A stretch of DNA of 64,000 bases. Origin: a virus (Duplodnaviria; Caudoviricetes). The stretch spans positions 1 to 64,000 of the IMG/VR virus record IMGVR_UViG_3300017565_000002; one strand, 5' to 3'. Position 1 is the first letter of the stretch; the number at the start of each line of letters is the position of its first letter. Shown here in pieces: positions 11,040 to 57,733 of this stretch. The notes beneath the pieces were generated by a model, which ran no database searches, was not told the DNA's origin, and was given only the letters and a program-made list of their open reading frames with translations. The translations under genes and the position numbers were made by a program.

Positions 11040-11048
11040 ATATATTAT
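11040..11048 (+). promoter_or_regulatory. Early-type promoter ATATATTAT
   Basis: Immediately upstream of the RNase H gene. Confidence 0.5.
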
Positions 11049-17173: not shown

Positions 17174-17584
17174 ATGGTAACACTTTTGGACGGGGTTAAA
17201 CTGTATACATTCATGTGGTCGGTGACTGAGATCGTTGCGGTGATTAGAGAAAATCCAATCATTGAGCCTTGGTCGGATTTATACGCCACTCAAACTAAAA
17301 TCTTGGCATTAGATGCGGCCGGTGCTACCGAAGCCATATTAAATTTCCACCCCGGATTATTGAAATCCAACAGAATCAGTACGATAAGCAATCTGGTGGT
17401 AGTCAAGAAGTTGATTTACCATATTTCGCATTATGCATCTGAATTGATCAATCTCGTTCATAGTGGCCAAATCAGTCGAGATGTAGTAGATAATATATGG
17501 GCCAACGTAATAATAATCCACAGAGAAAGACTTGCTGTGGCGGAGATAATGACGAAAACAACTAGAGAAAGTGTGGTATGTTAA
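17174..17584 (+). CDS. Hypothetical helical protein
   Basis: 136-aa ORF, SD AAGGAGG. Confidence 0.7.
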   Translation: MVTLLDGVKLYTFMWSVTEIVAVIRENPIIEPWSDLYATQTKILALDAAGATEAILNFHPGLLKSNRISTISNLVVVKKLIYHISHYASELINLVHSGQISRDVVDNIWANVIIIHRERLAVAEIMTKTTRESVVC

Positions 17585-48700: not shown

Positions 48701-50349
48701 GATCCAATTGTGGGAGAAATAGAAATCCCCCAACCTTGAGACCAAGTGCTATAATTTGTGATCGTAAACCCTACAAATACATCTCTGATGACAACCTGTG
48801 GATATGCCCAAGCAGTGTCGGTTTCCCCGATATATATACAGCAATTAGTACCGTCATGGCCGAATCTAACCTTAAGATCGCCTTGTAAAGTTCGAGTTAT
48901 TGTATGACAGTTACAAGAAAGCCAGGCGGACGACGTACCATAGTTATAGCCAGATATATGAAACGTTGCTGTTTTGGATGGTGTTGAATAATCATATACA
49001 TCAACGGTCATCATTATCATATTGCTAGACCAGCTTACGGGAAGTTTTATCTTGATTACACCAGTTTCAGAAACGAGTACACTCGAATACATTCCTCCGC
49101 TAGGGTACGCTAAAAAGATACCGGGTCCCGGGCTAAGCCTTGAACCTACGGCGGGAGCCTCTAATGCTCCTGTCATCTTATCTCCGTCTAACTTAACTGC
49201 ATTTTCAAGCGTTGTACGAGGATCAGTCTTCCAGTCAGATTTTCCAGTAATGGCTTTGATTCGGTTTGCTAACCAACCCAGAATCGTCGTGAGAGTGCCG
49301 GTGTTAGAGCTTGGTGCTGTGCCATCACCTATTACGCGACTACCGATAACTGTATCAGTTGCGGCATCTGTTGTCTCTGTCAACTCGGAGAAACGTACAT
49401 TACCCCATGCAATACTACCGGCGACAGACCCAGCTTTCAAAAATTTATTATTATTCGTCGCACCTGTAGCAGGGACATGAAGATTTCCGTCTCCGGTTGG
49501 ATGTACATAGTTATTCGCACCAGCTGTAATACCAGCAAGTTTATCAAATTGTGCAGCCGTCATAAACCCTGCGGCAGCGCTACTAGCGGCAGCATGAGCA
49601 GTTCCACCTGCACCAACGTGAGTTATTGGAGCTTGTTGAACGTTATCGACATTTCCTAACCCCACATCTGCTTTACCGGGCTTATTAGCAGATGTATAGA
49701 AATCTGCCCATGCACCCCAGCTATTATCCCCCTGTGTTGCTGCCCTAACTTTCATCAGCGGAATCTTGTTATTGGCATAATCGTACGCAATTTGATATGA
49801 CGAGGTATACGCATTCATATTATAGGTAATAACACCAGAGATGGAGAATGGAAATCCTTTGGTGTTATCACCCAATGTATATGAAATTCCCTCTGGATAA
49901 GTGTTTGGGGCATCTGAAGCTGACTTTGCATTATAGCCAAGATTGCGATAAGGTTCTTGTTTGAGGTTATCAACATTTCCTAGCCCGACCTGTGCCTTCG
50001 TTACTTGGTTAGGGTTGTCTCTTCTAGCTGCATATGCAGAGATAGAAGTATCAACCGCAGTTTGTGTTACATAATTCTCGCTGTGCCAAGTGTTATTATG
50101 CACAACCAGTTGCTGAATCGTAGGAAGGTTTGCCCATGGGACCTTAGAGGTTCCATCCAATGGTGCAATGCCGTTTGCTGCACCAATCTTATTATTTATA
50201 GCAGCAATACTGGCACTTAATTGATTAAGCGTAATGGTTCCATCTCCGAGCTGTACATCAATCTGCTGTACCACGGCAAGGAGTTGGGTTTTTATACTCT
50301 CCAGTTCATGTAGTACGTGTGGTTTTGACACAATATGCACTCCTCTCAT
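45751..50349 (-). CDS. Long tail fibre protein
   Basis: NPxQVTKAQVGLGNVDN repeats, four W..GN.G.GSGLNAD..DG joints, gp53-like C-terminal W.ELYHTG.KP; true start may be GTG 50331. Confidence 0.85.
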   Translation of the reverse strand: MRGVHIVSKPHVLHELESIKTQLLAVVQQIDVQLGDGTITLNQLSASIAAINNKIGAANGIAPLDGTSKVPWANLPTIQQLVVHNNTWHSENYVTQTAVDTSISAYAARRDNPNQVTKAQVGLGNVDNLKQEPYRNLGYNAKSASDAPNTYPEGISYTLGDNTKGFPFSISGVITYNMNAYTSSYQIAYDYANNKIPLMKVRAATQGDNSWGAWADFYTSANKPGKADVGLGNVDNVQQAPITHVGAGGTAHAAASSAAAGFMTAAQFDKLAGITAGANNYVHPTGDGNLHVPATGATNNNKFLKAGSVAGSIAWGNVRFSELTETTDAATDTVIGSRVIGDGTAPSSNTGTLTTILGWLANRIKAITGKSDWKTDPRTTLENAVKLDGDKMTGALEAPAVGSRLSPGPGIFLAYPSGGMYSSVLVSETGVIKIKLPVSWSSNMIMMTVDVYDYSTPSKTATFHISGYNYGTSSAWLSCNCHTITRTLQGDLKVRFGHDGTNCCIYIGETDTAWAYPQVVIRDVFVGFTITNYSTWSQGWGISISPTIGSFTWTLVDNSTVSRYAKDAGTLVNMGPTVAGNSNTIMMRDGNGRSKVSAPSAVDDIARLDTVTNNPALGVPDTRVTNLLPADTSINSKFRVDFKTRTTVDLPAGTGGYAGVITFKPYSDGTATRVHQLAFTDEGTLYYRNGTVNSNTWGLWYKIWNETNQGPGSGLNADLVDGIHGTDLVKKDGSVAMTGGLQIPLDAYAYYANRRLDPVALASGEEYVILLHQRYHLTELTTNNYCVGTIYGSRGGGGSANRLAMVNINTRSSYKLNIAAIESVSEKWTLVTCVYNGVNYMALKVPYLESPLVHGYSFTGYVYSAAPETLKVIPYYRTTTSTVLNAEINDSIATFTPTASKWYDYQNLYVGTDKVWHYGNVGAGSGLNADMLDGLHGNDFVKKDGSVVMTKDLQIIDATSGGNHNHHTNKFIGVQSSDYLQSVILLHPIYDGTDIAENYCMGTFHALRGGIGVSNRIASVTVTTRAAGTSTNVGTIESVGEAWTLVTCTYGGIKYFGIKVPYAAGFFNRGIIFTGYSKATSGQSLLLVSYFNQNTSAVLNAEINNSITTFSSGTDKWISARELYMGAASPTNKIWHAGNMGTGSGLNADLVRGLANSTTATINTVMTRDGNGRSQIVSPAVDADIANKGYVDSGDANLRKQRYHTTTGFVLGNNDWTAIASGSSASYSESDRGVVISGNTTIKIMSRIPIDPESNYFLRAKIKKKSGTGLLYIGAISLDNSYAEINTDQASAYNYFAARGATIAAGVSQYFEGVISGYNTTATGDHNKFDPEAKYFDIAIVPNSGGTGDTVVEWLEVYKAPSTAYVGPYKVWHAGNMGTGSGLNADMVDGVSAGGFMRRYNFATTADLDTVTEAGSHRLPSVVTNGPVGSNLAFGNLLVLRGDIGDTVTQLVSGFSNNKYYMRHGNPLGGGGMWYPWVELYHTGFKPTATDVGLGPTSTPTFAEVTATNKMTIGSVTMQYNTVTKSLDFNVV

Positions 50350-52625: not shown

Positions 52626-55600
52626 TTACAATTTGTATCGAGGACTTCCAGTCCGATAAGTCGAAATTGGAATCCGACCATCGGATGTCAATACATTTGG
52701 AATTTCCTCAGGTATAGCAATATGGTCTTCTATTGTAAGTTCTTTACGATCTTTTAAGCAATACTCATACAAGATTTCAAACCAATGGCGATCAGCAAAA
52801 TTCACTGTCCGTCTATGGTCTTCTACATTTATTACAGTATTCAATACGCCAAGCAATGATTCAATTTCAGCTACAGACAATGTAGCCAAATATGCTGACC
52901 ACTTATCCACAAGATTATAAAAGCTTGATTCATACGTAAAGTCAACACGTTTTCGTAGAATACACATATTGTGAATCGAATTGACATTAATGGAGAATCG
53001 GTAAGAATCTATAACCTGAATATTGGACGGATGAATAAGTTTCCCGTCTACAAATACCAGATTATATTTTGTACTAAATGGGTAATTCTTATTCGTCAGT
53101 GTAACGATCTTACTCCCAGCGGTTAGGGCTACGTTATACTCAACCATCTCAACTTCACTGGATAGTAAAACACTAATGGTTTCCCCTGTAGTCACATCCG
53201 TATCCAAATCAGTAACCAAAACTGTTTTCCCTTTAAGGATGGTATATTGGAATGGATTCAGTATATAAACCCGTTCTCTTGGTACCAGTCTCCCCCCAAT
53301 AAAGGCAACGATGTTATTTGAACTTATGAACGATGCCCAAGTGGGAAGTTCGGTAAGTCCATTCTTACTATAAGGCTCACAGATAAATTTATTAAATTTT
53401 GTGGTTGTTACATGAATATTCTTTCCGACATCCCCACTGGCTAAAGTAACCTGTTTTATACTTCCCTTATTCTCAACCGTAGTAGGTGTTAACTGTGTAA
53501 ATTTCCTCTTCTTAGCTGGGGTTAACGTCATCGGATGGAATCTTCTAATAACAGCTGTAGAACCTCCGGCGAGATAAATTGTGCCATCCGATCCCCCAAT
53601 TATCCGTTTCGCAGCAAGTGTATAAGGATAGTATCCACTCCAAACTTCCGGTGCAAGTGTCCTTGGGTTATACATTGCAATCCTAGCTGTCGGGAAACCC
53701 CCGCAAACGTAGACATTCCCATCATTTCCAACCATGATATCGGCAATAAGTGTATCGTAAGCAGCACTTATACCTTGTGTAACCATGGTAGATGAATTTA
53801 TTTTGATAAAGGTATCTCTGGTTGTACTACCTATACCATATAGATCACCCATCTGACTCATAACCAACTGCGTGTAAATACCAAAAGTTTCTGTATTCTC
53901 GGCTTCCTTTGCCAGCGTCGTCGGATGTAGACGCCATATTTTATTGGTTCCACCAATAAATATTTTCCCATTTGGTCCTTTCACTGTGGAGAAAATGGTT
54001 GAGCCAAATGTGGTTAAAGAGTTTAGTATTGCAAATGTATTTGCATCTACCCGATGCAAATAAGAATCAGCACCAGTCCAACCTTTTACATAAAAATCCC
54101 CCGCATTACCTGGTATCATAAACTGGGCAATTCTATCACCCTCTGTACTCTCGGACACAAGAGTTAGATTATTGGGTTCATATTTACTTATTTTATAAGG
54201 TGATGCCTTTCCTACTAATAAATTCCCATCTGGAAGTACCATAATAGATGAAGGTGAAGTCGATACTGTAACAGAAACTTCCGTCGCCATCGTATAAGGA
54301 TTTATCTTACGCAAATTATTACTACCGGCTGTACTAACTGCATAGATATACCCATCTAGGCCAACCACGATATCGCGAATCGTACCACTCAATGAACCTG
54401 TCATCAATTCTGTCGAAGTCTCATATACTTTAATGGGAATATTATCGTTAATTTTACCAGATGGTCCAACCACTAAAGTTGTTGTTTCCGGTTTAACTGA
54501 CTCTACATATGGTTCTACGGTAGAACCGAGATCAACCGATACGATACTAGCAGGAATCTTGTATAATGATACCCCACTTGAGATACTTGTCGCACCTGAG
54601 CTTGCAGTACCACTTAATCCACCACTCACAGAGTTTACGATCGTTGACGTCGTGTCGGTTAATTTCCAATATGCACGAAGAGATGTTTCATTTCCCTTAA
54701 GCTCATAGTTCATATGAGCTTTAATTTGATTCTGGCTTCGATCTATATCCCAAAGCCGTATATCCTTCAAATCGGCACGTAGGAATTGACTAGTAGTCAT
54801 ATTACCTATAGTCAATGGAGCCGTGTTTTGCCCTCCTACAGGTACGATAGTTGTACCAACTATTTCACCATTTACATAGAAGGTCGAACCTGAAGAATTC
54901 GTTGCAACTGCGATATGAACAAATACGCCAATCGGTGGTGCATAATTAACCGTCATAATGGAACCACCACTGAAAAACCCTATCCGTTTAGTGCCAGTTT
55001 CCAGGAATACTTCGTAATTACATACACCCCCCGATACCCTTTTGCTAATGATAGTCTCATATCCCGCAACAGTCCCAGTTCGGCGTATCCAAAACTCAAT
55101 CGTCATATTGCCGAGCAAAGATATTGCTGAATAATTGGGGACAGTAATATTACCACTTGTACCATTAAGTGAGTAGCAGTTGGGACTCGTTGGTATGATA
55201 TTATCATTAAAATAAATTTGGTATTGCCCATTGGACAAACGATTCGTCTTAAAGGGTGCTGTATTAATCCCATCATTAAAGAATAGCAATTCCTTTGGAT
55301 CTCGTTTCATATTTGCAATTGTATATTGAAATGAAGAATCCGTAATGGGAATTACGTAGCTTACTGTATGGGTTGTAAACTGAAAAGCAACCTTAGACTC
55401 CAAATACTCCCGATATACATTGTAGAAATCTTTAGACGCCTCTACCATTTCACTATTAAAAGTAGCCAATGGGGTATTCTCATTTATATTTGGCAGATAA
55501 GGCGTATGATTCTTAATCGCCGTCGGAAGTGTATTGGATAGAAACTGACTCATATAATCCCGGTATAAATTATATCGATGCTTCAAATCCTCATACTTGG

Positions 55601-56417
55601 ATACATTCCTTCTATAGATAACCACAATTCGTTCATCCAAATCAGGAACTTTAAACCCATCTGTCAAAGGTGTAAATTCTGTTGGAACTACACCTGTAGT
55701 TGTACCTACTTTATAATGACGGATATTATTCAATGCCACATATCCTAATGGAACTGGCAATTGGATATAGTTAAACTGACTATTCTGCATCGGTGTCCGT
55801 TTGTAAGAACGAATATCCGGACATAGGACAAGTACCCCTGTATTACTACCTGCGCTAATATTCAGTACATATTGACCAGCTTGAATCGTGGGTTCTACAT
55901 AGTGGGGGATACCATTGATCGTCAAGATATAACCATAAGCTAAATCTGGGGAACTTGTAGGTGCAACCGCTACTGTATAATTCCCCGTAAATTGATTTAT
56001 AGATGTAATTTCTTTTAAGACAGTGACGACAACGTTTGTCAAATCCCCATTGACAATCAGAACCATGTGACTATGTCCCGTTACATATACTGAACACTGC
56101 GATGGTGGGATAGCTACACCATTGGAACTGACTTGAATAAATACCTTCGTCAGATTAATAAAGGTAAGTAATGGATAGACTTTCTCATGGATCAATGGAA
56201 ACCTACGATTGATTTGAATATTACGGAAAATTTCATGGTAGACGTATACTGTCGTCCTACCTATCGCAGGTATCTTTAACTCTCTTTCAAAATGAATAAA
56301 GTCTTTCTTATTTAAGGATGTATTATCGATTGTAATACGAATAAGTCCGTTATGCTTATTCAACTCTTCTTTTCGTTTCAGTGTCTTCTCATAGATATAC
56401 TTAAATAGGTTATTCAT
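52626..56417 (-). CDS. Large virion (baseplate/tail) protein with inserted LamG and beta-propeller domains
   Basis: TIEFWI...HIAV...FYVNG...DIRLWD...LRAYWKL (LamG); G.DG.IY repeats (propeller); own late promoter. Confidence 0.7.
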   Translation of the reverse strand: MNNLFKYIYEKTLKRKEELNKHNGLIRITIDNTSLNKKDFIHFERELKIPAIGRTTVYVYHEIFRNIQINRRFPLIHEKVYPLLTFINLTKVFIQVSSNGVAIPPSQCSVYVTGHSHMVLIVNGDLTNVVVTVLKEITSINQFTGNYTVAVAPTSSPDLAYGYILTINGIPHYVEPTIQAGQYVLNISAGSNTGVLVLCPDIRSYKRTPMQNSQFNYIQLPVPLGYVALNNIRHYKVGTTTGVVPTEFTPLTDGFKVPDLDERIVVIYRRNVSKYEDLKHRYNLYRDYMSQFLSNTLPTAIKNHTPYLPNINENTPLATFNSEMVEASKDFYNVYREYLESKVAFQFTTHTVSYVIPITDSSFQYTIANMKRDPKELLFFNDGINTAPFKTNRLSNGQYQIYFNDNIIPTSPNCYSLNGTSGNITVPNYSAISLLGNMTIEFWIRRTGTVAGYETIISKRVSGGVCNYEVFLETGTKRIGFFSGGSIMTVNYAPPIGVFVHIAVATNSSGSTFYVNGEIVGTTIVPVGGQNTAPLTIGNMTTSQFLRADLKDIRLWDIDRSQNQIKAHMNYELKGNETSLRAYWKLTDTTSTIVNSVSGGLSGTASSGATSISSGVSLYKIPASIVSVDLGSTVEPYVESVKPETTTLVVGPSGKINDNIPIKVYETSTELMTGSLSGTIRDIVVGLDGYIYAVSTAGSNNLRKINPYTMATEVSVTVSTSPSSIMVLPDGNLLVGKASPYKISKYEPNNLTLVSESTEGDRIAQFMIPGNAGDFYVKGWTGADSYLHRVDANTFAILNSLTTFGSTIFSTVKGPNGKIFIGGTNKIWRLHPTTLAKEAENTETFGIYTQLVMSQMGDLYGIGSTTRDTFIKINSSTMVTQGISAAYDTLIADIMVGNDGNVYVCGGFPTARIAMYNPRTLAPEVWSGYYPYTLAAKRIIGGSDGTIYLAGGSTAVIRRFHPMTLTPAKKRKFTQLTPTTVENKGSIKQVTLASGDVGKNIHVTTTKFNKFICEPYSKNGLTELPTWASFISSNNIVAFIGGRLVPRERVYILNPFQYTILKGKTVLVTDLDTDVTTGETISVLLSSEVEMVEYNVALTAGSKIVTLTNKNYPFSTKYNLVFVDGKLIHPSNIQVIDSYRFSINVNSIHNMCILRKRVDFTYESSFYNLVDKWSAYLATLSVAEIESLLGVLNTVINVEDHRRTVNFADRHWFEILYEYCLKDRKELTIEDHIAIPEEIPNVLTSDGRIPISTYRTGSPRYKL

Positions 56418-56454: not shown

Positions 56455-56466
56455 TAATAGACTGTT
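56455..56466 (-). promoter_or_regulatory. Late-type promoter AACA-N6-TA
   Basis: AACAgtctatTA, identical to 2606-2617. Confidence 0.7.
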
Positions 56467-56540
56467 TTTAACACATTTATCTATACCCAATATTCCCCCT
56501 TAAATAGTATAAAATAATACTACTATAACTTAAATAATAA

Positions 56541-56809
56541 GGGGGCGCTAAGCCCCTTTTACTGGGACATAGAGGGGCGGACGGGCGGGATCTGTGAAGT
56601 GCAAGGAAGAAGAAAACTAGAAATCCCTAGAGATCTCCCCGAGAGGGGAGGAGCCCTTGACCCCCGTAGGGTAAAGAGGAAAAACAGCTCAGTGGTGAAG
56701 AAGGGTCTTGGAAGGGGTAGGACAGAGGACGAGCGAAGGCGAGACCCCCGTGTAGAGGGAGAGTACGTGTTCAAATAAATCTACCAGAAGAATGAGACAA
56801 TTCTTCTGG
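56541..56809. other. GC-rich structured non-coding element (ncRNA or origin/packaging site candidate)
   Basis: 58% GC and 67% purine over 56541-56760 (hand count); several hairpins and a G3 x4 motif; adjacent to a 40-nt 10%-GC tract. Confidence 0.55.
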
Positions 56810-56878
56810 ACTAAACTTTATTCTTTTAACCATTAGATAAGCAGAATGGATAGAACTTATCGAAATGAGGGATGAAAT

Positions 56879-57733
56879 ATGGGTAAGCTATTACAGGATT
56901 ATATAAAGCACAGAGAGATAGAAAGAGAATCTCAAAAGAGAAGAGAGAACTTCTTCTTCTTAGGAGGATTCATAAGTATCTTCTCGATTATTATTATTCT
57001 ATATGTGGCAATCTATTACGTAGAGCAGCATGATCCAACAAAAGATCTATACTTCTATCCATCGACAAAAACAGAAGCAAAGTCAGAAAAGGGAGAAGTC
57101 TATCAGATTGAAAATATATTCCCAGCTTATGATAACTACAACTTCTTCTTAGAGAAAAAAGCTGTGAACTATAAAACCATGTATGGATTAATTGGGAGAA
57201 AGTTTGATATTCATTCTTTCAGGGAATCCTATGAGTTTAGTATTATCAAAAATCCCGATAACGATATTGCAAATGGGTATGGTATTAAGAGATACTACAT
57301 CTACTCATTAATCAACGATAAAGATCCGGTAGCTATCTTATATGTAGAGAAAAGTGAAGGCATGATCATAGGTGTAACAAGTCCTTATTTGATTAATGCA
57401 GAGTTTAAGGATATGACACTCAATGGTTCTAACTTTACAGAGGTAACGAGATTGAATGATTTTATGATAGGAGAAGACAAGAAGCATTATACCTTTACCC
57501 ATTATGGGGGAGACTTATACTTAGCAACGACAGAAGGTAACGAGTATGGATATAAGAGTAATGATCCTTTAATCTATACAGCAACCATCTACAGTAAGAA
57601 GTCGATTAATTCAATCTTACAACTGATTGATTTCTATAAGGATAATGAAAACTACGTCACAGCATACTTTTCAATCTTCTTAAACGATAAGTATCAAGTT
57701 ATCTATCAAACACTCGTCAAAGAGAAAGGGTGA
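56879..57733 (+). CDS. Single-pass membrane protein with extracellular domain
   Basis: TM FFFLGGFISIFSIIIILYVAIYY near the N-terminus. Confidence 0.75.
   Translation: MGKLLQDYIKHREIERESQKRRENFFFLGGFISIFSIIIILYVAIYYVEQHDPTKDLYFYPSTKTEAKSEKGEVYQIENIFPAYDNYNFFLEKKAVNYKTMYGLIGRKFDIHSFRESYEFSIIKNPDNDIANGYGIKRYYIYSLINDKDPVAILYVEKSEGMIIGVTSPYLINAEFKDMTLNGSNFTEVTRLNDFMIGEDKKHYTFTHYGGDLYLATTEGNEYGYKSNDPLIYTATIYSKKSINSILQLIDFYKDNENYVTAYFSIFLNDKYQVIYQTLVKEKG

Follow-up and report, generated by a model that had tools for sequence, protein, structure and literature searches.

Location and composition of the element

The analysed DNA (referred to below as the window) comprises 64,000 nt, positions 1 to 64,000 of the phage record IMGVR_UViG_3300017565_000002 (Duplodnaviria; Caudoviricetes; here designated G000), a sequence of 215,803 bp obtained from a soil metagenome. 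The subject of this analysis is a GC-rich island located between two divergent genes, a minus-strand gene encoding a protein of 1263 aa and a plus-strand gene encoding a protein of 284 aa. The island contains one copy (copy A; 56565..56771, plus strand) of a non-coding element of ~207 nt with 68% purine and 54% GC. Among all 200-nt segments of the 215.8-kb genome, the island constitutes the GC maximum (0.575 vs. a mean of 0.41, sd 0.04), and copy A and a second copy described below (copy B) both fall within the top four segments for purine/pyrimidine skew (0.705 and 0.285). This composition is no chance fluctuation.

The sequence was re-read and all features listed in a first-pass annotation of the window were found: (i) a GC hairpin, GGGGC-gctaa-GCCCC-TTTT (56542-56560), (ii) a G-run block, GGG-N7-GGGG-N5-GGG-N-GGG (56564-56589), (iii) the hairpins CTCCCC-GAGA-GGGGAG (56635-56650) and ACCC-CCGTA-GGGT (56660-56672), (iv) a long-range GGGTCT/AGACCC pair (56703-08 and 56742-47), and (v) a perfect 10-bp inverted repeat (56784-93 and 56800-09). 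The annotation had also stated that nothing else resembles this region, which is true of the window and does not hold for the whole genome, since a second copy is present at G000:201727-201927 on the minus strand.

Two hairpins bracket copy A. The first one (56539..56560), with T-rich sequence on both sides, abuts the 5′ end of the element and has the plus-strand tail TTTTACTG, while the second, the 10-bp inverted repeat with a 6-nt loop (56784..56809), is placed 13 nt past the element and has the plus-strand tail ACTAAACTTTATTCTTTT. Both (56542-56556 and 56784-56809) were classified by the terminator scan as minus-strand terminators and came close to this score on the plus strand, and they therefore look bidirectional; the downstream repeat is a possible 3′ end or terminator for the RNA of the element and for antisense transcripts. 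An imperfect 17-nt direct repeat (repeat D1) also flanks copy A. The neighbouring AT-rich tract (56501-56540; 10% GC), enclosed by an 8-bp inverted repeat CCCCCTTA/TAAGGGGG (56495..56545), belongs to the divergent intergenic region and lies outside the conserved element. Neither the late-promoter core nor the early-promoter core ATATATTAT was found within it, and no comparable tract was found next to copy B or next to the copies of related phages.

Two paralogous copies with a variable middle

A self-search of G000 revealed exactly two copies of the element, which are 82-83% identical. Copy B is inverted relative to copy A and is located past the terminator of a gene encoding a virion protein of 564 aa. 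An nhmmer profile recovered copies A and B (E = 4e-44 and 1.2e-41, respectively) and no third copy in the genome. The alignment of the two copies distinguishes three parts: (i) a 5′ constant block of 67 nt (56565..56631, plus strand), identical in A and B, (ii) a variable middle of ~80 nt (56632..56710, plus strand), strongly divergent between the copies and including indels, and (iii) a 3′ near-constant block of ~60 nt (56711..56771, plus strand) with one mismatch relative to copy B. Both short hairpins of copy A are placed in the middle; the sequence found at the corresponding place is CCCC-GATA-GGGG in copy B and CCCC-GAA-GGGG in both copies of the related phage G001. The 3′ block contains a second GGACAGAGG motif (56720-56728), a C run GACCCCCGT (56743-56751) and the tail ACGTGTT; possible pairing partners of the C run are GGGTCT (56703-08) or, in the 5′ motif described below, the first G tract.

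The same organization was visible in metagenome unitigs of two runs, in which shared blocks of 67 and 49 nt occur at ~2x the depth of the flanks, and two alternative unitigs of 151 and 145 nt extend across the middle. In an independent soil sample (run X3) we observed a 205-nt unitig composed of the left flank of copy A, the shared 5′ block (56497-56631 in total) and the middle of copy B; either the two copies have recombined naturally or the very low coverage (~3x) has produced this join.

Distribution among related phages

Relatives of G000 were reached via homologues of the 564-aa virion protein. The resulting family consists of six copies in four uncultured phages from soil and groundwater (G000, G001, L008 and L009). 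In G001 (247 kb, like G000 a complete genome), one element (G001-1) follows the orthologue of the 564-aa gene and the other (G001-2) is placed on the opposite strand, ~6 kb from the orthologue of the 1263-aa gene. Contigs L008 and L009 carry one element each, also after the 564-aa orthologue; both contigs break at or soon after the element, and L009 ends inside it. No element was found at the matching position in more distant relatives (up to 55% protein identity), and the G-tract motif that marks the element is absent from two whole complete genomes, G002 and G004. A BLAST search with the locus found no match among 50,697 phage records.

The motif itself is rare, with 34 loci in 2.9 million viral contigs. 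It occurs twice in G000, twice in G001 and not in G002, and a reversed control pattern gave no match. Judged from the sequences, two motif matches in G001, one of them at the matching intergenic position, cannot be due to chance. An exact 18-mer of the motif had a single match in viral contigs, a chance one inside a baseplate-like gene of a GC-rich phage. With a looser motif, 34, 65 and 43 loci were retrieved from viral, metagenome and genome collections, respectively; after a filter for downstream purine content, these loci, with the exception of L065 and L124, were dismissed as chance matches in GC-rich DNA or as parts of wholly purine-rich contigs (L089, L113 and L114). The two remaining loci, L065:242-600 and L124:1-285 (minus strand), carry GACAGAGGGGAGGTGATCGGGAT followed by ~200 nt of 80% purine, have no long open reading frames (ORFs) and show no similarity to the phages described here.

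The shared anatomy comprises a purine-rich body (64-68% purine overall and up to 82% over the 150 nt past the motif), one or two short GC hairpins of the CCCC-loop-GGGG type, a second GACAG word, a C run and the tail CGU(G)UU-AAAU. The lengths of the copies are 137, 193, 207, 212 and 224 nt, and their GC content ranges from 37 to 54%, being 37-42% in the copies of G001 and L008. Identity within a genome (82% in G000 and 76% in G001) exceeds that between genomes (~50%), despite the rough synteny of both loci. This pattern in the sequences implies that the paralogues evolve together by gene conversion.

Such co-evolution would also fit a DNA-level repeat without any RNA function, i.e., a recombination-prone or selfish repeat, an insulator or a binding site of a phage protein, kept by gene conversion. 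The far greater similarity within than between genomes fits this reading, as do the position of copy A, which has no promoter and lies between two bidirectional-looking hairpins, the imperfect 17-nt direct repeat around it, and the unitig of the independent sample that joins the left flank of copy A to a copy-B-type middle. However, the element keeps its positions between G000 and G001 and thus shows no sign of mobility, its neighbours include neither a transposase nor a homing endonuclease gene, five of the six copies have a promoter-like motif upstream, and G tracts at variable spacing (8-10 nt) suit a folded nucleic acid better than a fixed protein site. We therefore consider a purely DNA-level repeat unlikely.

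The conserved G-tract motif is a candidate quadruplex

The 5′ end of each copy contains a motif, GACA-N1-3-AGGGG-N-GG(G)-N1-3-GG(G)-N1-2-GGGAU, represented in copy A by GACATAGAGGGGCGGACGGGCGGGAT (56566..56591, plus strand), with G tracts of 4, 2, 3 and 3 nt separated by variable loops. Copies A and B share the form GACA-UAG-AGGGG-C-GG-AC-GGG-C-GGGAU. The corresponding sequences are GACA-G-AGGGG-C-GG-C-GGG-C-GGGAU in G001-1, GACA-G-AGGGG-C-GGG-U-GG-UC-GGGAU in G001-2, GACA-UC-AGGGG-C-GG-AAU-GGG-C-GGGAU in L008, and GACA-GU-AGGGG-A-GGG-U-GG-AC-GGGAU in L009. Among these five variants the G tracts are invariant, whereas every loop varies in sequence or length: in each variant, three tracts have at least 3 G and the fourth is GG, the loops measure 1-3 nt, the short tract alternates between the two inner positions, and the spacing from the first to the last tract varies from 8 to 10 nt. 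Fixed tracts combined with free loops and spacing are the strongest argument for a G-quadruplex (G4) that the sequences offer, because neither a duplex nor a protein site of fixed spacing would give such a pattern.

The first-pass annotation had described a canonical G-quadruplex. Such a motif does occur in copy A (56564-56589) and is one of only two canonical G3+ quadruplex motifs on both strands of G000, but it is not conserved: its first GGG (56564-66) is reduced to GG in copy B, and no G run is present at this place in G001, L008 and L009. The conserved core could instead form a quadruplex of two tetrads, or one of three tetrads that contains a vacancy or bulge. Guanine-vacancy and two-tetrad forms are among the recognized classes of G-quadruplexes, and the resemblance of the element to them, three tracts of at least 3 G plus one GG, is purely sequence-based. 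G4Hunter scores are 1.5-1.64 in all copies, which places them in the top 0.02% of genome windows. With the G4-aware folding of ViennaRNA, all six 5′ ends had a two-tetrad quadruplex in their lowest-energy fold, with a gain of 1.6-8.5 kcal/mol over the fold without a quadruplex in the 5′ 45 nt, and the predicted structure is flanked by a closing helix of 3-6 bp in G000, L008 and L009. The strongest G4Hunter peak elsewhere in G000 (72582-72606) is unrelated and lies on the template strand of another putative small RNA.

Promoters, terminators and the transcribed strand

The late-promoter consensus of Bacillus phage AR9 is AACA-(6N)-TA/G, with the last base serving as the start site (PMC5312081), and G000 contains a matching motif, AACA-N6-TA. 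Of its 94 sites, 27 are located 12-80 nt before a start codon, compared with 0-3 for CACA controls, and the extended late-like consensus in this genome is aAACA-N4-A-W-TA-A. By its distribution in the sequence, AACA-N6-TA is a genuine promoter-like motif in G000; a GACA variant, with 8 sites 12-80 nt before starts, shows modest enrichment. On the G-rich strand, (G/A)ACA-N6-TA occurs 6-25 nt upstream of the element in five of the six copies: as GACAtgtccaTA in copy B, GACAaaaaagTA in both G001-1 and L009, GACAgttgtaTA in L008 and AACAaatcatTA in G001-2. The phage has RNA polymerases (RNAPs) of its own, as the first-pass annotation had assumed, and homologues of both RNAP beta and beta′ were found in G000.

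Early-promoter-like sites of the form ATATATTAT-N5-6-G resemble the AR9 early-promoter consensus AAATATATATTAT-(6N)-G. There are 26 of them in the genome, mostly before genes. Sites of this form lie directly downstream of copy B (G000:201700-201720, minus strand), L008 and G001-1 (in the last case past its terminator), before the next gene. Terminators on the G-rich strand were identified downstream of G001-1 and G001-2. Thus, the two copies of G001 are bracketed by both a promoter and a terminator, copy B and L008 have a promoter only, and copy A has hairpins only. Taken as a whole, these sequence signals make transcription of the G-rich strand a well-motivated prediction. Inside copy A, AACAGCTCAGTG (56683-56694, plus strand) fits AACA-N6-TG and is not found in the other copies; it could start a shorter RNA from copy A or be a chance match (by an estimate, 200 nt would contain ~0.16 of them).

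Transcription of the G-rich strand would also be compatible with a cis-acting role, in which late transcripts traverse the element, and the terminator where present, into the next gene, so that the element acts as a long 5′ leader or attenuator whose quadruplex and polypurine sequence would make the 5′ end more stable or adjust read-through. The next gene after copy B and L008 follows without an intervening terminator and possesses its own early-promoter-like site. A polypurine 5′ stabiliser was reportedly described for an RNA of Bacillus phage SP82 by Hue, Cohen and Bechhofer in 1995. Combined early and late promoters are typical of the continuously expressed genes of AR9, in which 5′ untranslated regions (UTRs) reach 491 nt (PMC5312081), and 8 of the 11 small RNAs of phage 201phi2-1 arise from 5′ UTRs by premature termination (PMC11512511). 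On the other hand, strong terminators follow both G001 copies, and the genes after copies A and B have promoter-like sites of their own between the element and the start codon. The element thus has no fixed gene partner: the genes downstream of five copies are mutually unrelated, and a leader belonging to one gene family is excluded. A general role as leader or attenuator is accordingly doubtful.

The element has no conserved coding capacity

The first-pass annotation had considered that a 71-aa ORF on the minus strand (56559-56774) might be translated and explain the composition. This frame has no ATG start and begins, in copy A, at TTG. It stays open throughout copies A and B despite two 3-nt indels, which is what a small protein gene would show. 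However, stops are present in all three minus-strand frames of G001-1, G001-2 and L008, and, by an estimate from base frequencies, a 70-codon frame would be open by chance with a probability of ~0.25 on a strand of ~32% purine. Six-frame translations revealed no frame open across all copies, and the ORFs of the element have no match in Pfam or PHROG. It is the composition that explains the ORF, rather than the reverse, and we regard a small protein gene as highly improbable.

Predicted late polypurine RNA

We propose, at roughly even odds, that each copy is a gene, or gene-like unit, of a paralogous pair and specifies a late polypurine RNA of weak structure, the 5′ end of which folds into a G-quadruplex. 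The step of transcription is drawn from the promoters and terminators, and the quadruplex from the sequence, its conservation pattern and the energy model. The predicted RNA would have ~140-225 nt, would be read from the G-rich strand and would probably be synthesized by the non-virion RNAP of the phage from late (G/A)ACA-N6-TA promoters. Its 5′ G tracts would form an RNA G-quadruplex of two tetrads, or of three with one short tract, which a helix of 3-6 bp would clamp in G000, L008 and L009, and the remainder would constitute a weakly structured polypurine body. As for function, we speculate that a stable, exonuclease-resistant late RNA might serve in trans as a scaffold or decoy that engages a factor binding G-quadruplexes or purine-rich RNA, for which an RNA-binding protein of the host or phage, a ribonuclease and the 30S subunit are candidates; alternatively, the quadruplex might protect the RNA 5′ end. 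In the case of copy B and L008, which have no terminator, the sequence would form a long leader on the late transcripts of the next gene.

Several observations weigh against this proposal. Copy A has no recognisable late or early promoter, and a GC hairpin ends 6 nt before its motif, while no terminator separates copy B and L008 from the early promoter that comes next. Pairing with the 3′ C run could keep the first G tract out of a quadruplex. The fold energy of the element is no better than that of shuffled sequences on either strand (z = 0.22 and 0.72), and RNAalifold on five copies gave 11 pairs with zero compensatory changes. Neither Shine-Dalgarno (SD)-like words (compared with dinucleotide shuffles) nor GGA triplets exceed what the composition predicts. 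With profiles built from sequence only, the G000 and G001 copies found each other at non-significant values (E ~1-3), although the right loci ranked first; what defines the family is therefore the 23-26-nt motif together with synteny and composition.

The first-pass annotation had suggested an undescribed structured non-coding RNA. Of the three readings offered there, this one has the best support, and an undescribed, non-coding and positionally conserved element, mostly with a late-promoter-like motif before it and in some copies with a terminator after it, is indeed what was found, but strong structure is not: the local hairpins are real, and the stretch as a whole is not unusually structured. 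In the scan against RNA families and the covariation analysis proposed there, the element was absent from Rfam and its 11 consensus pairs showed no compensatory change. At the gathering threshold, Rfam 15 had no match in the 64-kb window or in the loci of the other copies; at E up to 10, a 701-nt stretch gave 12 weak matches, those overlapping the element scoring 10-16 bits. ARAGORN detected no tRNA or tmRNA in the element. A stem of GGGTCT/AGACCC in copies A and B, with GGGTT/AACCC in G001, was recognized by eye only and is prone to chance given the many G runs and few C runs, and it was not retained.

An alternative reading as a transcription-primed origin

Another suggestion of the first-pass annotation was a replication origin primed by an R-loop and a G-quadruplex and equipped with an unwinding element. 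According to this reading, the element acts as DNA: an RNA:DNA hybrid would form over the G cluster and the purine-rich non-template strand, a DNA:RNA G-quadruplex would stabilise it, and the 3′ end of the RNA would prime the leading strand, so that the two inverted copies would fire toward each other. The origins ColE1 RNA II and oriF/oriG of phage T4 are R-loop origins by the same logic. [quoted passage not shown] The layout of the element resembles CSB II (PMC3488243, PMC4176368) in that a non-coding G-tract block is placed on the non-template strand close past a promoter (6-25 nt from the predicted starts) and is followed by 100-200 nt of 64-82% purine, giving a predicted purine-rich transcript. 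The block and the purine skew are both conserved, the genome has two copies, and G000 encodes an RNase H (PF00075; 11091-11525), as the first-pass annotation had stated.

Positive support for this reading was not found. An orientation-aware model of third-codon-position skew places the best breaks near 10 and 180-192 kb, while the fit gains hardly anything from breaks at 56.5 and 201.8 kb (residual SS 3.12 vs. 3.16); a skew anomaly, proposed earlier as a check, was thus not seen at either copy, and the cumulative GC-skew minimum at ~55-64 kb tracks gene orientation. The AT-rich tract, the presumed unwinding element, is not conserved at the other copies, and neither is the G content (GC 37-42% in G001 and L008). 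RNase H (PF00075) was not detectable in G001 despite its two copies of the element, while in relatives devoid of the element it is encoded directly after the 564-aa gene (L005:5440-5900, L014:4326-5021, L015:4337-5038 and L017:4264-5037). An association of the element with RNase H is therefore inconsistent, as G000 keeps the gene and G001 has none detectable. Moreover, the promoters are of the late class, and the complete relatives G002 and G004 do without the element. In contrast to CSB II, the element coincides with no break in skew and lacks a conserved unwinding element, not all of its carriers have a detectable RNase H, and the G-tract block is followed by ~100-200 nt of polypurine sequence with hairpins and not by a defined priming site. 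We thus assign a low probability to an R-loop or hybrid-quadruplex origin. The annotation's further alternative, a packaging or terminus signal, received no support, since the two copies are internal and inverted and no evidence of a terminus was found.

Comparison with known small RNAs

Setting the origin aside, the proposed late RNA can be compared with two groups of small RNAs. CsrB, RsmY and RsmZ are protein-sponge RNAs with repeated purine words. Like them, the element exists as paralogues that differ in length, has a purine-rich body in which GGA and SD-like words are numerous, and is followed by terminators in some copies; it differs in that these words are present at the level of composition and are not placed in repeated hairpin loops, and in having no Rfam match. 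Each copy has 10-11 GGA triplets, against ~10 expected for copy A (an estimate from approximate base frequencies), and both a CsrA-type GGA sponge and an SD-mimic decoy were rejected as specific claims.

The closer counterparts are the small RNAs of giant phages. For phage 201phi2-1, 11 small RNAs were defined by a start site closely followed by a terminator (PMC11512511). Like sRNA005 of this phage and its phiKZ counterpart, identified by ONT-cappable-seq (PMC11512511), the copies are short non-coding units of <250 nt in giant phages with their own multisubunit RNAPs, and they share with these RNAs a position conserved among relatives and, in the two copies of G001, a promoter-like motif closely followed by a terminator (PMC11512511). 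The element has no sequence similarity to them and no Rfam family. Those RNAs were described with a conserved secondary structure, whereas in the element none is detectable and the G-tract motif and the polypurine body take its place; the element also occurs in two co-evolving copies. It is a new, narrowly distributed non-coding element of the general kind of giant-phage small RNAs. Unusually, G tracts and purine composition define it rather than helices, and its co-evolving paralogues each have a private middle.

Neighbouring genes and other features of the genome

The 1263-aa gene (52626..56417, minus strand) encodes a protein with a Laminin_G_3 domain (Pfam PF13385, E = 1.1e-18) and has orthologues in G001 and G002; judging by the sequence, it is probably a virion or tail protein. 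Its late-promoter-like site AACAGTCTATTA (56455..56466, minus strand) belongs to the AACA-N6-TA sites located 12-80 nt before a start. The 284-aa gene downstream of copy A (56879..57733, plus strand) has no significant family match and is preceded by an AACC-N6-TA variant of the late-promoter-like motif (56828..56839, plus strand; one mismatch to the consensus). Distant kin of the virion proteins of G000 occur in Bacillus phage vB_BpuM-BpSp, giant Staphylococcus phages, Yersinia phage phiR1-37 and giant Pseudomonas phages. A Bacillus-like host is a guess that draws on ribosome-binding sites only.

Further ATATATTAT-N5-6-G sites of the window were found at 11040, 12410, 24197, 28921 and 40069 (plus strand) and at 17498 (minus strand), and divergent early-promoter-like sites are present at G000:143289-143317 and downstream. 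A tRNA-Leu gene (anticodon TAG; 50114-50184, plus strand) lies outside the element. The genome has at least one other unit composed of a late-promoter-like motif and a terminator (G000:72470-72645, plus strand; L174:170-345). This non-coding unit, located at a late/early boundary, contains a late-promoter-like AACAGATGAATA, ~155 nt with hairpins, the terminator CCCCATACGC...GCGTATGGGG and an early-promoter-like site, and it has no Rfam match. Tandem repeats of 66 nt (22 codons) with the core CCTTATCAGGATTTTCAAT...GCTAACTGTA occupy G000:1-1100, 214400-215803 and, on the opposite strand, 149000-149900. Because the record's 123-bp "direct terminal repeat" is part of such a run, it could have arisen in assembly and need not mark a true terminus of the genome.

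Significance

With six copies in four uncultured phages, the finding is a well-defined lead rather than a result. To our knowledge, very few small RNAs of giant phages with their own RNAPs have been defined, and we know of none in which G tracts are the only strong conservation. Should the element, against our expectation, prove to act through R-loops, it would locate replication origins in a phage group for which none is known; the inverted copies would then be transcription-activated origins of an AR9-like giant phage, fired by the late polymerase as a counterpart of CSB II, which we hold to be improbable, and they would represent the first origin defined for the AR9-like group. The co-evolving copies with private middles raise the question of copy-specific specificity. 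If the G-quadruplex reading is true, the element would provide a natural comparative case, with tracts kept and loops free, for a functional RNA or DNA quadruplex in a bacterial virus.

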